Assembly: GCA_017403155.1 (NCBI GenBank)
Contig: JAFQOP010000014.1
Location: 121,677-185,676 of the forward strand
Length of the DNA: 64,000 nucleotides
From: Clostridia bacterium
Lineage (GTDB): Bacteria > Bacillota > Clostridia > Oscillospirales > CAG-272
Reading direction: 5' to 3'
In this document: one piece after another, positions 50,906 to 58,705 of the stretch
How positions within the stretch are numbered: the stretch's first letter is position 1
Layout: every line of letters begins with the position of its first letter
Notes under the pieces: model-generated
Databases searched by the model: none
What the model saw: only the letters and a program-made list of their open reading frames with translations
Told to the model about the DNA's origin: nothing
Made by a program: the position numbers and the translations under genes

Positions 50906-51805
50906 ATGAAAATATATGCACCGAGCTACTACAAGGAGTTTAAATGCATCGCTGACAAATGCAAAAAAAGCTGCTGTATCGGTTGGGAGATTGACGTTGA
51001 CAAGATATCGTTAGGGAAGTATCAATCTCTTACAAGCGAGTACGGAAGGATAATTGCACAATCTATATCGTCACAGGTGTATACACACCACTTTATACAA
51101 GATGAGGAAAAAAGATGCCCACATCTCGATGCCACGGGCTTATGCAGGATAATTACCGAGCTCGGCGAGGATTACTTATGCGATATCTGCCGCGAGCATC
51201 CGCGCTTTTATAACAATACTCCCGGAGGACGTGAGGCAGGACTAGGCATGTCCTGCGAGGAGGCGTGTCGAATTATTCTGAGCTCTGACGGATATGATGA
51301 ATTTATAGAGCTTGGCGAGTGCGAGGGAGAGGCCGAGCCCTTCCTCATTAACCCGCTGCCTACGAGGGCGGAGGTATTTCGTATTTTAAAATCCTCGGCT
51401 CCTTACGAAGAAAAGCTGGCTAAAATATCGGAGCGCTTTAAGGTATCCTTATCAATAAACACCAAAAGGAAATGGAGAAGAATTATCAAGGAGCTCGAAT
51501 ATTTAGACCCGACGCACAGAGAGTTTTTTTCCTGCTTTTCGGCAGATATTCCAACACCGATAAATCTGGAAAAGCAGCTTGAGCGAATGCTTGCATACCT
51601 GGTTTACAGACACGTTAGCGTCGAGGAGTCTGTTGACGGCATGAGATGCGCGCTCGGATTTGCTCTTTTTTGCGAGCGGCTTCTTTGCTCGGTTATGATG
51701 AAAAACAAGACGATGAAGCTCGAGGATGCGGCGAGAATAATCTCCGCAGAGCTTGAATACTCGGAGGAGAATACAGATAGTATAATGATGGAATTCCTCT
51801 TTTGA
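50906..51805 (+). CDS. Cys-rich FliB-family protein (flagellin lysine-N-methylase-like)
   Basis: N-terminal YYKEFKCIADKCKKSCCIGWEIDVD plus a second Cys cluster CPHLDATGLCRI...CDICREHPR. The family assignment is from memory. Confidence 0.6.
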   Translation: MKIYAPSYYKEFKCIADKCKKSCCIGWEIDVDKISLGKYQSLTSEYGRIIAQSISSQVYTHHFIQDEEKRCPHLDATGLCRIITELGEDYLCDICREHPRFYNNTPGGREAGLGMSCEEACRIILSSDGYDEFIELGECEGEAEPFLINPLPTRAEVFRILKSSAPYEEKLAKISERFKVSLSINTKRKWRRIIKELEYLDPTHREFFSCFSADIPTPINLEKQLERMLAYLVYRHVSVEESVDGMRCALGFALFCERLLCSVMMKNKTMKLEDAARIISAELEYSEENTDSIMMEFLF

Positions 51806-51811
51806 AATTAA

Positions 51812-51852
51812 AAATCCCGTACAGAAAAAACTGTACGGGATTTGATTTTTTT
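51812..51852. terminator. Bidirectional terminator between FliB-like gene and decarboxylase operon
   Basis: AAATCCCGTACAG aaaaaa CTGTACGGGATTT, flanked by an A-run and a T-run. Confidence 0.8.
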
Positions 51853-53252
51853 TATACGGGATGGACTCCGTTTGCTTTGTCAGCGTTGGTGTCAATTCTG
51901 TATTTCTGCTGCTTTCTCCACTCGAAGAACTTGATTGCAACCTGCTCGAAGAGCGCGAGAGAAAGAAGGTCCTCATCCTGCTCGCGGTAGGGAGCAACTC
52001 TCGAGTTAAGAGAATCAATTTCGGGAGGAATCTTGTCAGCGGGACGGTAGTCGATTATCTCGTCGTCGCCGATAATCTTCTTCTTGAATTCCTCGGATAT
52101 AGCGGCAGGGCATTTGCCGTACTCACCGCGCACAAGACCGCGGAATTCCTTGGTAACTCTGGAGTATCTTCCGTCCTCGGCAAAGAGTACGTTGTTTACT
52201 GCCTGCGTACCTACTATCTGGGAGGTAGGAGTAACAAGAGGGGGATATCCTGCATCCTGTCTTACGTTTGCAACCTCCTCGAGAACCTCGTCGAGCTTAT
52301 CGAGCTTTCCTGCCATTTTAAGCTGAGAAATGAGGTTTGAAAGCATTCCACCGGGAACCTGGTAGCGGAGTGCATTTACGTCAACCTTGAGCACCTTGGG
52401 GTCAATAAGACCGGATGCTATATACTGCTCGCGAATCTTGTTGAAATGCTTTGCAACAACGTCGAGCTTTGCAAGGTCAAGACCGGTGTCATAGGGTGTG
52501 CCCTGGAGGGTAGCAACAAGCGACTCGGTAGGAGTATGAGAGGTACCCATTGCAAGAGGAGAAATAGCGGTATCAACACTGTCAACGCCTGCTTCTATTG
52601 CCTTGAGAAGGGTCATCGAGCCAAGTCCTGCAGTGTAGTGACAGTGAAGGTTCACGGGGATGCTTACGCTGTTTTTGATGGTTTTGACAAGCTGATATGC
52701 TTCATACGGCTTGAGAAGACCCGACATATCCTTGATACAAATGGAGTGTGCACCCATCTCCTCGAGCTGCTTTGCATACTGTGCAAAGCCCTCGTTGGTA
52801 TGGAAGGGGGAGGTGGTGTAGGAAATCGCAGCCTGAACATGTCCGCCCTCCTTGATAGTAGCCTTGATGGCTGTTTCAAGGTTTCTGGCATCGTTAAGTG
52901 CATCAAATATGCGGATTATATCAATTCCGTTTGCGATAGACTTCTGAACGAAGTATTCAACAACGTCGTCAGCATAGTGACGGTAGCCGAGAATATTCTG
53001 TCCGCGGAAGAGCATCTGGAGCTTGGTATTCTTTACGTGTTGTCTGATGGTACGGAGTCTTTCCCAGGGATCCTCGTGGAGGAATCTGAGGCAGGAATCG
53101 AATGTAGCGCCGCCCCAAGCCTCAAGAGAATGATATCCAACCTTATCCATATCCTCAAGCACGTCAATCATCTCGTCCGTTGTCATGCGGGTTGCCGCAA
53201 GGGACTGATGAGCGTCTCTGAGGACAGTTTCTGTAATTAAAACTTTTGACAT
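51852..53252 (-). CDS. Oxaloacetate decarboxylase alpha / transcarboxylase 5S-type carboxyltransferase (no biotinyl domain)
   Basis: ITETVLRDAHQSLAATRMTTDEM TIM-barrel carboxyltransferase N-terminus. 466 aa, ending without an AMKM biotinyl domain. Confidence 0.85.
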   Translation of the reverse strand: MSKVLITETVLRDAHQSLAATRMTTDEMIDVLEDMDKVGYHSLEAWGGATFDSCLRFLHEDPWERLRTIRQHVKNTKLQMLFRGQNILGYRHYADDVVEYFVQKSIANGIDIIRIFDALNDARNLETAIKATIKEGGHVQAAISYTTSPFHTNEGFAQYAKQLEEMGAHSICIKDMSGLLKPYEAYQLVKTIKNSVSIPVNLHCHYTAGLGSMTLLKAIEAGVDSVDTAISPLAMGTSHTPTESLVATLQGTPYDTGLDLAKLDVVAKHFNKIREQYIASGLIDPKVLKVDVNALRYQVPGGMLSNLISQLKMAGKLDKLDEVLEEVANVRQDAGYPPLVTPTSQIVGTQAVNNVLFAEDGRYSRVTKEFRGLVRGEYGKCPAAISEEFKKKIIGDDEIIDYRPADKIPPEIDSLNSRVAPYREQDEDLLSLALFEQVAIKFFEWRKQQKYRIDTNADKANGVHPV

Positions 53253-53274
53253 CTTATCTTATTTTCCTTTCAGT

Positions 53275-54906
53275 TTAGAAATAGCTAAGGAATACACCCG
53301 CCGCAACGGCAGAGCCGATAACACCGGCAACGTTCGGTCCCATTGCATGCATGAGAAGGAAGTTGGAGGGATCCTCCTTGCGTCCCACGTCCTGGGCAAC
53401 TCTTGCCGCCATAGGAACAGCGGATACACCTGCCGAGCCGATAAGGGGATTGATCTTTCCGCCCGTGAGCTTACACATGATTTTACCGACAAGAAGACCG
53501 CCGCAGGTAGAAATTGCGAATGCACAAAGACCGAGGGCAATGATCTTGAGAGTATCAATGCTAAGGAAGTTAGCTGCATTTGCAGTAGCACCGACAGAAA
53601 CGCCGAGGCAGATTGTGATAATGTTGCACAGCTCGTTCTGTGAGGTCTTGGAAAGTCTGTCCGTAACGCCCGAAACGTTGAAGAGGTTTCCAAGCATAAG
53701 GAAGCCTACGAGGGGCGCTGCATCGGGAATGATAAGAGATACGATAAGGGTGACGAGAATAGGGAAGACAACCTTCTCAACGGTAGATACGCTGCGCAGA
53801 TTTGTCATTCTTATTGCTCTTTCCTTCTTTGTGGTGAGCAGTCTCATGAAGGGAGGCTGAATAATCGGGATAAGAGCCATGTAGGAGTATGCGGCTATTG
53901 CAATAGCGCCGAGAAGCTCGGGTGCGAGCGTCTTGGTAACGAGAATAGCCGTAGGTCCGTCCGCGCCTCCTATAATGCCAATCGAGGCAGCCTGCATGGG
54001 AGAGAAGCCGAGGAAGAGTGCCGCAAAGAATGCAACGAATACTCCAAACTGAGCACCTGCACCCATGAAGAGGGATTTTGGATTGGCGATAAGGGGAGAG
54101 AAGTCGGTCATAGCACCAACGCCCATAAATATAAGCGAGGGGTAAATGCCGAGCTTAACACCAAGGTAGAGGAAGTCGATAAGACCGCCCTTGGTTACAA
54201 CCTCTGCTACCATCGTCTTAAGTCTTATAGTGACCGCACCGTCCTCGAGCTTTGCAACAGAGCCGAGTGTTTCGTTGAAGATAACCTTGTAGTCAACGTC
54301 AACGCCCTCAAGTCCAAGGGTCGCAAAATCGAAGGAGCACATACCGTTGCTGACGGTATAAAAATTGTCATGTATAGCAGGGGTTATCTGTGATATAAAC
54401 TGTTCAATCTGAAGTGAAAGCGCAGTAGACGTAGCTGCATCCTGCGAAAGAACGTTTATGTAGTAAATATTTCCGTTAAGATGATACGTTTCGGCAGGAA
54501 GTGTTGCGAGGAACTGCTCGACCTCTTCCACGAGGCCTGCTGCCTCTATAGCGGTCATATTTATAGTTCCAACACCGTTTTCAAACGTAATATAGGCTTC
54601 ACCGATACTGTCTACGAATTGATTGAACTGTGTACTGAGTACACCTACTGCCTCTCCGGCATTATCAAAGGTAATATAGTAGGTATCGTAGAAGAAGTCG
54701 GTATTTATAAGGTTTGCACCGGGAAGGTTGGCAAGAAGCATACCGAACGCAATGGGCAATAGAAGAAGGGGCTCAAATTTCTTAACTACCGCAAGATAAA
54801 AGAGCACACCTATAATTGCGTACATTACAAGGTATTGCCACCAATTTTCCTGTGCAAACAATTTTGAAATTCCCGTAGTAGCAAGGAAATTTTTAATTGC
54901 TTCCAT
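53275..54906 (-). CDS. Na+-translocating decarboxylase beta subunit (OadB/MmdB/GcdB family) with expanded loop
   Basis: [68 protein letters not shown]. 543 aa, against roughly 375-435 aa for members I recall. Confidence 0.9.
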
Positions 54907-54932
54907 AATATATTGGTACCTTTATCCTTTGA

Positions 54933-55343
54933 TTAGTTGAGAGTTACAAGTACGTCGTTTGCGGATACGCTTGCGCCCTTCTGAACATTGACAGATGCAA
55001 CAACACCGTCCTGAGGAGCAGGAATGTCATTCTCCATCTTCATTGCCTCGAGCACGCATACAACGTCGCCCTTCTTAACAGACTGACCGACACTTACCTT
55101 TACCTCGAGGATTGTACCGGGCATGGGAGAGGTTACCTTTGCCGCGCCCTGTGCGCCTGCGGGAGCAGCGGGCTTAGCAGCAACGGGAGCTACAGGAGCT
55201 GCAGCAGGAGCTGTGGGAGCTGCGGGGGTAGCAACGGGTGCGGGAGTATATACGGGAGCTGCGGGAGCGATTCCGCTCGCATCAGCCTCTTCAACGATTA
55301 CGTCGTAGGTGTTACCGTTTACGGTAATAGAATATCTTTTCAT
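54933..55343 (-). CDS. Biotin carboxyl carrier protein (MmdC / 1.3S-like)
   Basis: Ala/Pro-rich linker and biotinylation motif LEAMKMEN. Confidence 0.9.
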
Positions 55344-55368
55344 AACAAAAATCCTTTCAAATTACATA

Positions 55369-55713
55369 TTAAACTCTTCTGAATGAAACGACTTTGAACT
55401 TCGTTCCCGAGGATTCGGCCTCCGCCATAGCTATAGCCGCTGCGATTACCGCAACTATCTCCTCGTCAGCTGCGGGAGTGGGTGCTGCTGGTGCGACGTA
55501 TACAGGTGCGTCCTCTTTCTTTTCTGCCTTCTTCTTAGACTGACCCGAGAAAACAAACTTGAAGATCATAAGGCTCAGAAAAATAGTAAATAGAACAGAA
55601 AATACAGCAGTCATACCGAGAAGCACCATCTCACCGCCGAACATAAGCTTTTGCCCTGCGTCCTCAATGGGCTTTGAGTAGTCGATACCTGCGCTTAAAA
55701 GCATTTTAAACAT
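55369..55713 (-). CDS. OadG/MmdD-family small membrane subunit
   Basis: 114 aa. A single TM, then an Ala/Pro-rich segment and the IVAVIAAAIAMA motif typical of OadG. Confidence 0.75.
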   Translation of the reverse strand: MFKMLLSAGIDYSKPIEDAGQKLMFGGEMVLLGMTAVFSVLFTIFLSLMIFKFVFSGQSKKKAEKKEDAPVYVAPAAPTPAADEEIVAVIAAAIAMAEAESSGTKFKVVSFRRV

Positions 55714-55728
55714 ATCGTGCCTCCTGTA

Positions 55729-57165
55729 TTAAAGGGGAAGTACCTTGCGGCAGCTCTCCTTAACAGAGCCCTTAGCAGTGAGCATGAGGAGTGCGGAGCA
55801 GATTCTTGCACGAAGCTCGTTTACACTGATTATATCGTCTATCTCGCCGCTTGCAGCAGCAACTGCGGGGGAGGAAACGGTTTCCTTCCACTCACTGACA
55901 AACTCATCTCTGGACTTATCGGCAGTGATGTGCTCATTCCAAGCAAAGGCAACACCGCACTCAGCCGTAAGAGCGCCTATCTCGGATTTGTTTGTAGCAT
56001 AAACGAGGTCGGCGCCGAGTGCCTTGGAGCCGAGAAGAACAAAGGATGCACCGATCGCGTGACCGATTATTACAGTTACCTTGGGAACGGACGCGGTGGC
56101 ATAAGCATATGCCAGGGAGCCAAGCTCCGAGGAGAGGTAAGGATTCTCGTTTTCTTTTTCAAATATTACACCGCAGGAATCCACGAGTGTAACTATGGGA
56201 AGGGAATACGCGTTGCAGAAGCGAATAAACCTGGTAAGCTTCTTTGCCACAGAAACGGTAAGTCTGCCCTCATCCTTTGAATAAGAGGTAGCGATGATAC
56301 CGCACTTAACTCCGCCTACGGTCGCAAGAACGGTAGATGCTGCAGGCTCATAGTCATGGGAGAGCTCGTAGAAAAGACCGTTATCCGTAATTACGGAGAT
56401 AGCCGAGAGAGCCTCTCCTGCAAAATCGAGGTCTCCGAGCTTTCTGTTCAGGTTGTCTGCGCATTCGTTAACAGCAATTCCTCTGGTATTGTTGTCGGGT
56501 AGGAAGGAAATGAGACTTCTGATATAGCCTGCGCAGGAGGGAGCCTCAGCGGTATATGCCACAATAGCATCCTGCGCGTTCTCCTTGCCGGTAAAGGCAG
56601 GGGAGTTTACGTAAAGGCTTGCATTTTTTTCCTTTATAATTATGTCAAACATTGCCGCGATAGAAGCAGCAAGACCTATGCACTTTCCGCCAACATACGC
56701 AATCTGCGGAACGGCACCCGATGCCTTTGCAACAGAGCTCATGATTCTTCCGTATGCCGCAAGGCCGGCAGTGCCTGCAAAGATGTCGGTTCCGTTGGAG
56801 TTAAAAATTCCAATCACGGGAGCACCGCTCTTCATAGCGAGGTCGTAGAGGTCTGCAATCTTCTTTGCATGACGCTCGTCGATAACTCCGTTCATTCTCG
56901 TTGCATCCTCACAGAATGCAAAGCAAAGCTTGCCGTCAATAGCGCCGTATCCGGTGATTACACCCTCGAACTCATTTGCACTCTCAGTTGTGTAGAAGTC
57001 AGTGATGGCACGCTTGGTGTATGCGCTGGTTTCAACAAAGGTATCCTGATCAAAGAGCATTGCAAGCTGCATCCTTGCCTCGGTACCTTCACCCGCTAAT
57101 ATTGAAGCACGAAGCTCTTCAACGGTAGGCAGGTGGCAGATGTCAGTTTTAGTATATTTATCCAA
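55729..57165 (-). CDS. Acyl-CoA carboxyltransferase (MmdA / PccB / transcarboxylase 12S family)
   Basis: 478 aa, two crotonase-fold halves (GAIDGKLCFAFCEDATRMNG, GGKCIGLAA, ...GHAIGASFV). TTG start; the in-frame TAA 33 nt upstream prevents extension. Confidence 0.8.
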   Translation of the reverse strand: MDKYTKTDICHLPTVEELRASILAGEGTEARMQLAMLFDQDTFVETSAYTKRAITDFYTTESANEFEGVITGYGAIDGKLCFAFCEDATRMNGVIDERHAKKIADLYDLAMKSGAPVIGIFNSNGTDIFAGTAGLAAYGRIMSSVAKASGAVPQIAYVGGKCIGLAASIAAMFDIIIKEKNASLYVNSPAFTGKENAQDAIVAYTAEAPSCAGYIRSLISFLPDNNTRGIAVNECADNLNRKLGDLDFAGEALSAISVITDNGLFYELSHDYEPAASTVLATVGGVKCGIIATSYSKDEGRLTVSVAKKLTRFIRFCNAYSLPIVTLVDSCGVIFEKENENPYLSSELGSLAYAYATASVPKVTVIIGHAIGASFVLLGSKALGADLVYATNKSEIGALTAECGVAFAWNEHITADKSRDEFVSEWKETVSSPAVAAASGEIDDIISVNELRARICSALLMLTAKGSVKESCRKVLPL

Positions 57166-57270
57166 ACTGAATTCCCGATTTGCTTATAGCAAATCTCTCC
57201 TTCCTTTTTAATAACTTGTTAGCAGGGAAAAGGGGACCGCATTAAATTTAGTCCAACTTTCACCAAATAT

Positions 57271-57299
57271 AATATACCATCAAATCGAAAATAAGTCAA
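57271..57299 (-). promoter_or_regulatory. Candidate sigma-A promoter for the decarboxylase operon
   Basis: On the minus strand: TTGACT (57299-57294), 17 nt spacer, TATATT (57276-57271). Confidence 0.4.
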
Positions 57300-57586
57300 T
57301 AGTAAATTATACTTTTATATATCATTATTTTACGCCTTCTTTATCAACGATTTTTTTGAAATTATTCATTAAGGGAATATGGCTTTTTAAAATTTATCAC
57401 ATATCCTTATTACCATTTCTGCCTCGAAATAATTATCGCTTTTATAATGAAAATGATAATTAAAATGCATTTCTTTTTTTCGCTCATAGGTACTCGGTTA
57501 ATTATAAAATCCTGGATGATTAAAGAGTAGAGAAAAACGTTTTTTTCTAAAATAATTTAATAAAAATCTTTTTTTATAAAAAAGGA

Positions 57587-57615
57587 TTGAATTTTAACTA
57601 TAGGTGTGCTATACT
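57587..57615 (+). promoter_or_regulatory. Candidate sigma-A promoter for cdaA
   Basis: TTGAAT (57587-57592), 17 nt spacer, TATACT (57610-57615). Confidence 0.45.
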
Positions 57616-57662
57616 AAAATATATAAATATATTTTTGTAACTTTCCGTGAGGTATACTATAC

Positions 57663-58532
57663 ATGCATCCTGATTCACTTACACAGACCGGGAGCACCGA
57701 CTTTTTTTTCAAGCTCGGTGAGGCTCTCAGGGTCTTTCTGGATAATCCGATAATACATTTACTCGATATACTCATCCTCGCCTGCGTTCTTTTTGTTGCA
57801 GTGCGCTTTATACGCGGAAGAAAGGCGGGCGTTCTTCTCATTGGCATATCCGTTCTTCTTCTCATAATGGGAATTGCACATCTGTGTGGCTTCTCCGCCA
57901 CAAAGATGGTATTCGCCCAGTTCTTCAGCGTTGGAATTGTTGCACTTGTTATAATATTCCACCCTGAAATCAGAGAAGCACTTGAGCGCGTAGGAAACGG
58001 CTCAATCAGCGGTATAATGAGCTTCGGTGATCAGAGAAAGAAGCAGGAGCAGTATACAAAGATAATTGAGGACGTCTCCGTCGCAGTCGGCGAGCTCTCC
58101 AGCACAAAGACTGGTGCGCTCATAGTTATTGCAAGGACTATAAACCTTGACGAGGTTACAAACACGGGCGTAAAACTCAACTCCGAGGTTTCCTCCTTCC
58201 TTATACGCAATCTCTTCTTTAACAAAGCACCCCTTCATGACGGTGCTATCATTATTGATGACGGAAGAATTGCTGCTGCAGGCTGTCTGCTCCCGCTCAC
58301 AAGGCGCACAGACCTTGACAGCGACGTCGGCACAAGGCACCGAGCCGCAGTGGGTATGAGCGAGGTGAGTGACGCAATAATCGTAGTCGTATCTGAGGAA
58401 ACGGGAACGATTTCGGTTGCGCACGACTGCACACTCACAAGAGGCTACACCTCCGATTCTCTTAGGAAATTTCTTACAAAATCGCTTATTAAAAGACGTT
58501 ACTCCGACGCCAAGGGCGATAAGACAGAATAA
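57663..58532 (+). CDS. cdaA: Diadenylate cyclase CdaA
   Basis: Three N-terminal TMs. DAC domain motifs TGALIVI, HDGAIII, GTRHRAAVG, VVVSEETG. Confidence 0.9.
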   Translation: MHPDSLTQTGSTDFFFKLGEALRVFLDNPIIHLLDILILACVLFVAVRFIRGRKAGVLLIGISVLLLIMGIAHLCGFSATKMVFAQFFSVGIVALVIIFHPEIREALERVGNGSISGIMSFGDQRKKQEQYTKIIEDVSVAVGELSSTKTGALIVIARTINLDEVTNTGVKLNSEVSSFLIRNLFFNKAPLHDGAIIIDDGRIAAAGCLLPLTRRTDLDSDVGTRHRAAVGMSEVSDAIIVVVSEETGTISVAHDCTLTRGYTSDSLRKFLTKSLIKRRYSDAKGDKTE

Positions 58533-58549
58533 TTTTTAACGGTGATGAA

Positions 58550-58660
58550 ATGAAGAAAAAGCTTTTCGGCATTAAAATCGGTACTATAATACAGTTTGCT
58601 TTTTGTCTTGTGCTTGCTTTTGCAATCTGGCTTTTTGTCCAGTACAACGCTTTAACTTAA
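58550..58660 (+). CDS. 36-codon ORF resembling only the N-terminal membrane anchor of CdaR (YbbR)
   Basis: MKKKLFGIKIGTIIQFAFCLVLAFAIWLFVQYNALT. Located 17 nt after cdaA, where cdaR normally lies, with a weak SD GGTGA. No YbbR repeats follow. Confidence 0.35.
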   Translation: MKKKLFGIKIGTIIQFAFCLVLAFAIWLFVQYNALT

Positions 58661-58705
58661 ATATTTTTTCGCGCGGTGCTTCTTGCCCCGTGCATTGAGG
58701 TTTAA

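Follow-up and report, generated by a model that had tools for sequence, protein, structure and literature searches.

A predicted split-alpha oxaloacetate decarboxylase operon with a conserved, divergent 12S-like carboxyltransferase in a gut Clostridia genome

We analysed a 64,000-nucleotide stretch of DNA (hereafter, the window) from a Clostridia bacterium whose genome is 1.5 Mb in size and 87% complete. An ORF check of the window identified five minus-strand ORFs at 51852–57165, which were assigned to families using Pfam and NCBIfam profiles. The gene order, 5' to 3' on the minus strand, is carboxyltransferase (CT), OadG-like protein, BCCP, beta subunit, and OadA/5S-type CT, and the intergenic gaps are 15, 25, 26, and 22 nt. 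An earlier note on this DNA had described a five-gene set at these coordinates with gaps of 15–26 nt and a parts list combining oxaloacetate decarboxylase (OAD) and transcarboxylase components around one carrier; the coordinates and gaps agree with ours, and the profile assignments bear out the hybrid parts list. The features are as follows (window positions).

57271–57299, minus strand: promoter-like site upstream of the CT gene (TTGACT, 17 nt, TG-extended TATATT)
55729–57165, minus strand: divergent 12S/PccB-type CT, 478 aa, TTG start (PF01039)
55369–55713, minus strand: OadG/MmdD-like membrane anchor (gamma), 114 aa (PF04277)
54933–55343, minus strand: free BCCP, 136 aa, with EAMKME (PF00364)
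53275–54906, minus strand: OadB-type beta subunit (carboxybiotin decarboxylase/Na+ pump), 543 aa (PF03977, TIGR01109)
54190–54711, minus strand: insert of approximately 170 aa in the beta subunit, seen as a gap in the family-profile match
51852–53252, minus strand: OadA/5S-type CT without a biotinyl domain, 466 aa (PF00682 and PF02436, NF008985)
51812–51843, bidirectional: intrinsic terminator hairpin at the operon end, 13 bp stem with T-runs on both sides

The promoter-like site, read from 57299 to 57271, was the top-scoring match of the region (10/12) and lies inside an AT-rich gap of 497 bp as the sole good candidate for the operon. No Rfam elements were found across 51000–58700. With one promoter-like site and one terminator, all five genes are predicted to be transcribed as one unit.

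The 466-aa OadA/5S protein matched NF008985, "oxaloacetate decarboxylase subunit alpha", with 737.6 bits against a cut-off of 718. Its closest solved structure was the CT domain of V. cholerae OadA (2nx9, 509 bits), and the scores against PycB (5ks8) and the transcarboxylase 5S subunit (1rqb) were 472 and 471 bits, respectively. The metal and carbamyl-lysine motifs RDAHQS, KDM, and HCH were intact in the alignment to 2nx9, and this protein was the best conserved of the subunits (84–94% identity among orthologues). It stops after the carboxyltransferase domain (PYC_OADA) and, as the earlier note had claimed, lacks a biotinyl domain of its own, and the biotin carrier is encoded by a separate gene; the alpha-fused biotin domain of the classical Klebsiella and Vibrio enzymes is missing, and the split form is known from Firmicutes instead. 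The BCCP (PF00364, 80.9 bits) comprises an N-terminal assembly motif, a Pro/Ala linker, and a biotinyl domain whose EAMKME includes AMKM. No other biotinyl domain was found in the whole genome, in line with the single carrier proposed before.

The gamma subunit scored 59.2 bits for PF04277 (cut-off 27) and fell under the NCBIfam cut-offs (oadG_fam, 32.2 vs 36.05; MmdD, 28.6 vs 150). A Lys-rich segment and a Pro/Ala linker join its single TM helix to an amphipathic helix at the C-terminus (EEIVAVIAAAIAMAE). The beta subunit matched PF03977 (504 bits), TIGR01109 (497.7 bits against a cut-off of 190.6), and Salmonella OadB (6iva, 380 bits), and keeps E40, D203, Y229, R304, N311, N373, G377, S382, R389, and N412 (Salmonella OadB numbering), which are essential or Na+-site residues in the Salmonella protein (PMC7274780). 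Its profile match falls into two blocks, residues 26–69 and 237–542, on either side of the insert (residues ~70–236), which the earlier note did not include and which separates the first conserved segment from a conserved helix; in orthologues, the beta encoded within the operon is between 395 and 543 aa long. The OadA motifs, the beta residues, and the gamma TM helix and C-terminal helix expected of a Na+-translocating OAD were all found. Judged from sequence, OadA, BCCP, beta, and gamma are a full split-alpha sodium pump with its key residues intact, and the Na+ specificity of the beta subunit is predicted from the conserved residues.

With regard to the 12S-like CT, the similarity to characterised enzymes was lower. 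The protein, the sole PF01039 member found in this genome, matched PF01039 with 228 bits and TIGR01117 (mmdA) with just 276 bits against a cut-off of 998.8. Its closest solved relatives were PCC-beta (1vrg, 211 bits) and 12S (1on3, 201 bits), and only 38 bits were obtained against GcdA (1pix). The public gene call begins at Met32 and gives 447 aa; the 31 residues ahead of Met32 are conserved in homologues, with K3, K6, P13, and L18 invariant, which supports the TTG start. Oxyanion hole 1 is G164-L165, and across the clade the residue after G is T, L, S, or C; the equivalent of hole 2 is A373-S374, and V376 occupies the position of PccB-D422. The canonical pairs in all characterised enzymes are G-G and G-A (bioRxiv 10.64898/2026.02.06.704326), so the canonical glycine oxyanion holes expected of a 12S-type CT are not present here. 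Purifying selection acts on the CT. Conservation along the protein peaks in the residues around hole 2, on the biotin side (1.5th percentile of entropy), whereas the PGFxPG equivalent is conserved to an average degree only and position 2 of hole 1, which faces the acyl-CoA, varies. The strong conservation of the CT and its conserved active-site loops would argue against a purely structural role.

The operon had previously been framed as unusual, a framing that did not hold. The order CT-G-BCCP-B-5S is kept in approximately 70 of the 80 related loci, which come from distinct species-level genomes, all of them uncultured animal-gut Oscillospiraceae-like genomes; moreover, beta-less cognates of cultured Clostridia are already in the literature, and OadA/5S proteins without a biotin domain constitute the known family NF008985. 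Wherever a locus extended far enough for its neighbours to be seen, the CT was accompanied by BCCP and 5S. The in-operon beta gene has been lost at least 5 times within the clade, with one 34-aa remnant. A second beta gene adjoins pyruvate kinase in the genome studied here, and an additional beta was found elsewhere in 4 of the 5 genomes with a beta-less operon that were searched. CT-less G-BCCP-B-5S operons occur in the same genus and order, which indicates that the OAD part works as a module. As far as gene content and similarity indicate, the operon is a variant of a known system, and the puzzle is its conserved 12S-like CT.

To place the CT in a metabolic context, we searched the genomes for partner pathways. 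A GTP-type PEPCK, which can supply oxaloacetate, is encoded in this genome and in 18 of the 24 genomes of the genus; pyruvate kinase is encoded too, so the PEPCK-OAD route is not obligatory. KS was not found in 23 of the 24 genus genomes, including this one, the sole exception being an outlier without this CT, and FabD followed the same pattern. Neither biotin carboxylase (ACC) nor crotonase (ECH_1) was found in any of the 24, the 41 genomes searched from the genus and order gave no match to methylmalonyl-CoA mutase (PF01642), and a search of this genome for three families of CoA-transferase returned none. The genome is 87% complete, yet relatives at 95–99% completeness show the same absences.

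We then sampled the order with 301 genomes, each at least 90% complete. The divergent CT was carried by 82 of them, of which 38 had neither KS nor biotin carboxylase, 36 had the two together, and 8 had KS alone. Its frequency was 24% in KS-negative and 31% in KS-positive genomes; across the 301 genomes, the presence of the CT is independent of KS and fatty-acid synthesis. Half of the 8 carriers with KS and without biotin carboxylase also have a second CT. An AccD-like match was found in G236, G241, and G284, adjoining KS in the first two, and G273 encodes a canonical 12S-type CT (787 bits) in addition to the divergent one (280 bits). The situation expected for an ATP-independent supply of malonyl-CoA, namely a host that makes fatty acids without a biotin carboxylase, was not what we found. 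Because the partner pathways were not found and the CT is equally common without fatty-acid synthesis, neither a second donor nor ATP-free malonyl-CoA for lipids explains the CT here.

The analysis shows which genes are present, how the operon is organised, which residues are conserved, how the system is distributed, and which partner pathways the searched genomes lack; from this we infer complex formation, Na+ coupling, a direction of flux, and a role for the CT as follows. The operon probably encodes a membrane-bound biotin enzyme that mainly performs Na+-translocating oxaloacetate decarboxylation, of the split-alpha Enterococcus type and with a transcarboxylase-like soluble core. PEP and CO2 would be converted to oxaloacetate by the GTP-dependent PEPCK encoded elsewhere in the genome, and the OadA/5S protein (466 aa) would move the carboxyl group onto the biotin of the free BCCP and release pyruvate. 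The BCCP would be held at the membrane by binding of its N-terminal strand motif to the amphipathic helix at the C-terminus of the OadG-like protein, and the beta subunit would decarboxylate the carboxybiotin and export Na+. Together with PEPCK, such a pump would conserve more energy than the pyruvate kinase reaction by itself. As for the 12S-like CT, it would be part of the same complex and dock the same biotin, and in this lineage it would neither supply malonyl-CoA for lipids nor let methylmalonyl- or glutaconyl-CoA enter the system. Most likely, it was inherited as a core subunit of a transcarboxylase-type assembly and has kept its predicted biotin-binding site; at most, it may equilibrate the carboxyl group with acetyl-CoA/malonyl-CoA.

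The main alternative, which we regard as possible but rather unlikely, is a bifunctional transcarboxylase and pump, in which the CT is fully active on acetyl-CoA and carboxybiotin derived from oxaloacetate is split, at a branch point or by a switch, between ATP-free formation of malonyl-CoA and Na+ export. The gene set equals 12S + 1.3S + 5S, and in the examined loci the CT always came with BCCP and 5S. The active-site loops of the CT are conserved, and a hydrophobic residue at the position of PccB D422, such as the Val found here, accompanies acceptance of acetyl-CoA (PMC7835884). In addition, the cognate operon of C. bescii is regulated by FapR (PMC7071700), and the C. thermocellum cognate is a source of malonyl-CoA in a curated model (PMC5414155). 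Against these points, nothing that would use up malonyl-CoA was found: neither KS nor FabD was detected in 23 of the 24 genus genomes, some of them 95–99% complete. The lack of association with fatty-acid synthesis in the 301 genomes, the ordinary ACC already present in 36 of the 82 CT carriers, and the second CT in half of the 8 carriers with KS and without biotin carboxylase also weigh against it, as do the two oxyanion holes, both of which deviate from the pairs of all characterised enzymes. A membrane-tethered transcarboxylase, one of the readings in the earlier note, agrees with the gene linkage, the CT always accompanying BCCP and 5S with beta being dispensable, and falls short as regards a sink for the product, since KS, FabD, and biotin carboxylase were not found in the genus.

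It is improbable, in our estimate, that the CT has given up thioester carboxylation and been repurposed, either as a soluble, uncoupled carboxybiotin-decarboxylating "relief valve" that bypasses the Na+ pump at a high gradient or as a regulatory subunit that senses acetyl-CoA. Such a role would agree with the biotin-side loop (hole 2) being the most conserved while the acyl-CoA-side elements are altered or variable, with the independence of the CT from any acyl-CoA pathway, and with its persistence where the operon has lost beta. The proposal is pure inference, however; another beta is still present in most of the genomes with a beta-less operon, and the conservation pattern fits an ordinary active site equally well. 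We know of no precedent for it among 12S-type CTs. If true, a 12S/PccB-type CT would have taken on a new function in about a quarter of the sampled genomes (82 of 301) of a major gut order.

The earlier note also suggested a single pump with two alternative donors, oxaloacetate and an acyl-CoA. Such a dual-donor decarboxylase, a merged Oad/Mmd complex in which 5S would deliver the carboxyl group of oxaloacetate and the 12S-like CT that of methylmalonyl-, malonyl-, or glutaconyl-CoA, is very improbable: although the CT-G order presumably mirrors mmdA-mmdD of the Veillonella operon, the top NCBIfam match of the BCCP is MmdC (121 bits), and beta belongs to the shared decarboxylase beta family, no metabolic source of a thioester was found (mutase, 0 of 41 genomes; crotonase and biotin carboxylase, 0 of 24 genus genomes; the three CoA-transferase families not found in this genome), the MmdA, MmdC, and MmdD equivalog cut-offs were missed by wide margins, similarity to GcdA was negligible, the CT remains in the operon after loss of beta, and a CT with beta and BCCP but without 5S was never seen in the loci examined.

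The preferred reading, a Na+-translocating OAD with an inherited CT, can be set against known systems. One is the split-alpha Na+-translocating OAD of Enterococcus faecalis, for which PMC8100219 cites Repizo et al. 2013. Its subunits are OadA, the OadD carrier, OadB, and OadH. As in that enzyme, OadA here has no fused biotin domain, the small carrier is separate, the OadB-type beta has the essential residues, and a small gamma-type subunit is present. The operon differs in that it opens with the 478-aa 12S-like CT, its beta has the ~170-aa insert, and it lacks a citrate-lyase context, oxaloacetate most likely coming from PEPCK.

The operon shares the same three types of soluble component with the Propionibacterium transcarboxylase (12S + 5S + 1.3S, EC 2.1.3.1), 5S and a small carrier being encoded alongside 12S, and the short N-terminal VNG..Y.V.V assembly motif of the BCCP resembles that of 1.3S. 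It differs in the methylmalonyl-CoA pathway, which was not found here (mutase, 0 of 41 genomes), in the non-canonical oxyanion holes of its CT, and in encoding a TM anchor and a Na+ pump beta subunit alongside the soluble parts.

Methylmalonyl-CoA decarboxylase of Veillonella (MmdABCDE) and glutaconyl-CoA decarboxylase (GcdABCD) resemble the operon in encoding together a CT of the acyl-CoA type, a small anchor, a biotin carrier that is free, and a pump subunit beta, and the beta family TIGR01109 is common to all three; the Mmd and Gcd systems have no 5S/OadA subunit. We rejected identity with MmdABCDE (TIGR01117, 276 vs 998.8; NF047903, 121 vs 200; NF047902, 28.6 vs 150) and with GcdABCD (GcdA 1pix, 38 bits; crotonyl-CoA pathway not found, with ECH_1 in 0 of 24 genus genomes).

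An ACC/PC-fusion transcarboxylase of Entamoeba and Giardia converts oxaloacetate and acetyl-CoA to pyruvate and malonyl-CoA. It would be comparable in that an acetyl-CoA-side CT and a pyruvate-side CT are paired, independently of ATP, through one biotin carrier in an anaerobe; it differs in being a single soluble eukaryotic fusion protein that feeds fatty-acid elongation.

Going by their published descriptions, the clusters of C. thermocellum, C. cellulolyticum (Ccel_1736–1738), and C. bescii, made up of CT, gamma-like, BCCP, and OadA genes, are similar in combining a 12S-type CT with a carrier and a CT of the OadA type. No beta gene is listed for them and their hosts make fatty acids, whereas here beta is in the operon and the genus is without fatty-acid synthesis. 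In C. thermocellum, Cthe_0699–0701 are listed as oxaloacetate decarboxylase (PMC3561251), the Cthe_0699 protein was detected in the membrane fraction (PMC3039559), and Clo1313_1523–1526 were recruited in a model as a putative malonyl-CoA transcarboxylase (PMC5414155). The C. bescii operon B5X54_RS07175–07190 has a FapR site, is derepressed in a fapR mutant, and is regarded as a putative malonyl-CoA biosynthesis unit (PMC7071700). This published link of the beta-less cognates to malonyl-CoA weighs against the preferred reading, since the CT of this family may be an active enzyme in other hosts and perhaps also in this one.

We analyzed the operon at 51852–57165 on the minus strand, where five open reading frames lie at exactly the coordinates assigned by the earlier note, in the order CT-G-BCCP-B-5S and with intergenic gaps of 15, 25, 26, and 22 nt. 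The features are as follows.

57299–57271: one promoter-like site, at the upstream end of the five-gene set
Minus strand, CT: 478-aa protein, 12S-like carboxyltransferase (PF01039)
Minus strand, gamma (G): 114-aa protein, OAD_gamma (59 bits; cut-off, 27)
Minus strand, BCCP: 136-aa biotinyl carrier protein with the EAMKME motif
Minus strand, beta (B): 543-aa protein, OAD_beta (504 bits) and TIGR01109 (498 bits)
Minus strand, OadA/5S: 466-aa protein, HMGL-like and PYC_OADA, without a biotin domain
51812–51843: one strong bidirectional terminator, at the downstream end of the five-gene set

The 5S-type protein lacks a biotinyl domain of its own, and the BCCP contains the sole biotinyl domain found in the 87%-complete genome of the window. 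No Rfam match to a riboswitch or other RNA was found in the 497-bp AT-rich leader. The public gene call of the CT starts at Met32 and gives a protein of 447 aa. The 31 codons upstream of Met32 (57072–57165, starting from TTG at 57165) are conserved in homologues, and the database model is therefore probably truncated at its start.

The OadA/5S protein passes the model NF008985, "oxaloacetate decarboxylase subunit alpha", with a score of 737.6 against a cut-off of 718. Its best alignment was obtained with the CT domain of V. cholerae OadA (509 bits), and the RDAHQS, KDM, and HCH motifs are intact. The N-terminus of the carrier, [16 protein letters not shown], exhibits the association-domain strand motif, which 1.3S shares. 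The in-operon beta retains residues E40, D203, Y229, R304, N311, N373, G377, S382, R389, and N412 of Salmonella OadB, among which E40, D203, R304, N311, S382, and N412 are essential according to mutagenesis (PMC7274780). The gamma protein possesses one TM helix followed by a C-terminal amphipathic helix, and the C-terminal helix of gamma is the alpha-recruiting element in the Salmonella enzyme (PMC7274780). All components of the decarboxylase are thus present, and it looks functional. In the in-operon beta, residues about 70–236 (54190–54711) also form an insert about 170 aa long; orthologous betas differ widely in length at this site (395–543 aa in total), and the copy in the window is the longest seen.

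Decarboxylation-driven Na+ pumps give fermenting anaerobes extra energy. A GTP-type PEPCK was found in the genome of the window and in 18 of the 24 genus genomes; no ATP-type PEPCK turned up in any genome searched. Because the decarboxylase part is complete and PEPCK-GTP is present, a route parallel to pyruvate kinase is available, in which PEP would be converted to oxaloacetate with formation of GTP and oxaloacetate to pyruvate with Na+ export. Of the free energy of the PEP-to-pyruvate conversion, a larger share would be conserved by PEPCK and the pump together than by pyruvate kinase. PEPCK-fed, Na+-translocating oxaloacetate decarboxylation of a split-alpha type is the best-supported prediction for the function of the operon. 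Reverse operation of the complex to make oxaloacetate is unnecessary, since PEPCK-GTP is present.

The protein collection contains more than 1,400 relatives of the CT, of which the best 120 are 65–77% identical, and a scan with one genome per species gave 293 genomes with a relative. The best 80 of these 293 consisted entirely of MAGs of uncultured "Eubacteriales", "Oscillospiraceae", or "Ruminococcus", with many sampled from animal gut or faeces (for example of roe deer, yak, sheep, and goat). The CT-G-BCCP-B-5S order was retained in the loci of these 80 wherever the contig was long enough, apart from nine related loci that lack the operon beta; the relatives compared are kin, so these counts are not independent observations. 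The 5S subunit showed the highest identity among related loci (84–94%), and the CT showed 60–73%. The same gene order also occurred in other families of the order (loci L087 and L090). A look-up of the CT in the ESM Atlas returned generic carboxyltransferase clusters only.

In the 5S tree, the nine beta-less loci were scattered within the five-gene clade, which requires at least five independent losses of beta. One of them, L059, contains a 34-aa beta remnant between BCCP and 5S (L059:9209–9310) that looks like a deletion scar. Beta was encoded elsewhere in four of five genomes with beta-less operons that were searched. The genome of the window itself encodes a second beta outside the window (369 aa, C5:44128–45180; L084:8078–9187), followed on the same strand by a weak OAD_gamma-like ORF of 138 aa (L084:9205–9621) and pyruvate kinase (L084:9627–11042), and beta and pyk are neighbours in a second family as well (L099). 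In this short-beta paralogue clade, Ser replaces the essential R304 (Salmonella OadB numbering) in three of three members. CT-less G-BCCP-B-5S operons occurred in other families and also in the same genus, in the 95%-complete genome G019. Another genome of the genus, G016, contains two operons, CT-BCCP-5S and a separate BCCP-B-5S (L091 and L098), so that carrier and 5S are encoded twice. The branch leading to the CT-linked 5S is very long, at 3.99 changes per site, and the accompanying CT is only 42% identical to that of the window. The neighbours of L089, L091, and L098, which are beta-less or divergent loci, were housekeeping genes and uninformative. A CT accompanied by beta and BCCP without 5S was never observed in the loci examined. 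The conserved core is thus CT-G-BCCP-5S, a transcarboxylase-like set with an exchangeable pump subunit. Among the three readings proposed previously (two carboxyl donors for one pump, a membrane-tethered transcarboxylase, or a switch), the membrane-tethered transcarboxylase is thus the one that fits best as far as gene linkage is concerned.

The CT has affinity to PccB/12S/MmdA-type enzymes (1vrg, 211 bits; 1on3, 201 bits; GcdA, only 38 bits), but its score with the mmdA model is only 276 bits, for which the cut-off is 999. Characterised enzymes have G-G or G-A in oxyanion hole 1 and G-A or G-G in hole 2 (bioRxiv 10.64898/2026.02.06.704326); the CT has G164-L165 in hole 1 and A373-S374 at the equivalent of hole 2. 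Across the clade, hole 1 was G-T (n = 57), G-L (n = 15), or, in a few cases, G-S or G-C. The motif DSGGARIQEG is changed to NSNGTDIFAG and PGFxPG to CGVIFE. The equivalent of D422 in PccB is Val, and a hydrophobic residue at this position accompanies acetyl-CoA acceptance (PMC7835884). In 79 species-level sequences, 19% of the CT columns were invariant. Conservation peaked in the biotin-side window around hole 2, with entropy at the 1.5th percentile; hole 1 was at the 19.5th percentile, and the PGFxPG equivalent was only average. As judged from this conservation, the CT is clearly under selection. An apparent internal stop in the CT of genome G033 was merely its natural C-terminus. Operon-linked CTs in other families of the order have different motifs that are likewise non-canonical. 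The stand-alone CT of genome G043, which has fatty-acid synthesis without biotin carboxylase (BC), is fully canonical.

The leading alternative role for the CT was the supply of malonyl-CoA for lipid synthesis. The operon CT is the only PF01039 protein in the 1.5-Mb, 87%-complete assembly, and no BC was found in any of the 24 genus genomes, many of which are 93–99% complete. Ketoacyl synthase (KS) was not found in these 24 genomes except in one outlier, which lacks this CT, and FabD showed the same pattern. This role was rejected for the lineage, because KS and FabD were missing along with BC from the genus genomes searched, the outlier apart. We also scored the mmdA, KS, and BC models in 301 genomes of this abundant animal-gut order, nearly all of which are at least 90% complete (the 87%-complete genome of the window included). 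The operon type, with its divergent 12S-like CT (195–530 bits), occurred in 82 genomes: 38 without KS and BC, which again argues against lipid supply, 36 with both, and 8 with KS only. The CT was present in 24% of the KS-negative and 31% of the KS-positive genomes. The presence of the CT is thus unrelated to fatty-acid synthesis. Three of the KS-only carriers also have an AccD-like gene (G236, G241, and G284), which adjoins KS in G236 and G241, and a fourth, G273, has a canonical 787-bit CT besides a divergent 280-bit CT. In these four of the eight, another CT is available where ATP-free malonyl-CoA seems needed. Fatty-acid synthase genes without BC were found in 16 of the 301 genomes (G133, G216, G236, G241, G256, G288, and G320 among them), several with an AccD-like gene that sometimes adjoins KS; these 16 are candidates for ATP-independent malonyl-CoA formation via an OadA/5S-type donor. 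Since KS, FabD, and BC were not found even in genus genomes that are 95–99% complete, members of the genus seem incapable of fatty-acid synthesis and probably obtain lipids from the host or the community, which has a bearing on cultivation attempts.

Methylmalonyl-CoA and glutaconyl-CoA were rejected as donors on pathway absence and family scores: methylmalonyl-CoA mutase was found in none of 41 genomes, including 16 other families, and crotonase in none of the 24 genus genomes. CoA-transferase activation of an external dicarboxylate was rejected, as none of three CoA-transferase families was found in the 87%-complete genome of the window. Because these searches were empty, acetyl-CoA is the only evident thioester, and malonyl-CoA would have no consumer. 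The two-donor reading is the least supported.

The 12S-like CT is predicted to be an inherited, selected member of the same complex, which in this lineage serves neither for the supply of lipid precursors nor for the entry of a second thioester donor. The CT may still equilibrate carboxybiotin with acetyl-CoA/malonyl-CoA, may merely scaffold OadA dimers in the manner of the 12S hexamer of transcarboxylase, or may have a new role. The comparison shows a 12S-like subunit under selection in lineages without fatty-acid synthesis or other carboxy-acyl-CoA metabolism. Because it is retained without matching pathways, the two standard explanations are removed and a clear biochemical question is defined.

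In cultured Clostridia, Cthe_0699–0701 (C. thermocellum), Ccel_1736–1738 (C. cellulolyticum), and Cphy_2433–2434 (C. phytofermentans) are tabulated as oxaloacetate decarboxylase (PMC3561251), and Cthe_0699, a "carboxyl transferase", was detected at about 220 kDa when membranes were analyzed (PMC3039559). A curated model of C. thermocellum describes the organism as lacking a standard acetyl-CoA carboxylase and takes the cluster, as a putative transcarboxylase, for its malonyl-CoA source (PMC5414155). The C. bescii operon, [quoted passage not shown], carries a FapR site and was derepressed alongside fatty-acid genes upon fapR deletion (PMC7071700). No enzymology was found in the literature for the clusters of these four species, which are handled inconsistently, as oxaloacetate decarboxylase or as malonyl-CoA-forming transcarboxylase. 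Because these clusters are so annotated and modelled, the combination of 12S-type and OadA-type CTs is not new, and each of the two readings has already been published. The cultured-Clostridia clusters as listed, whose orthology with the CT subfamily of the window is assumed from annotation only, have no beta gene, in contrast to the five-gene operon of the window.
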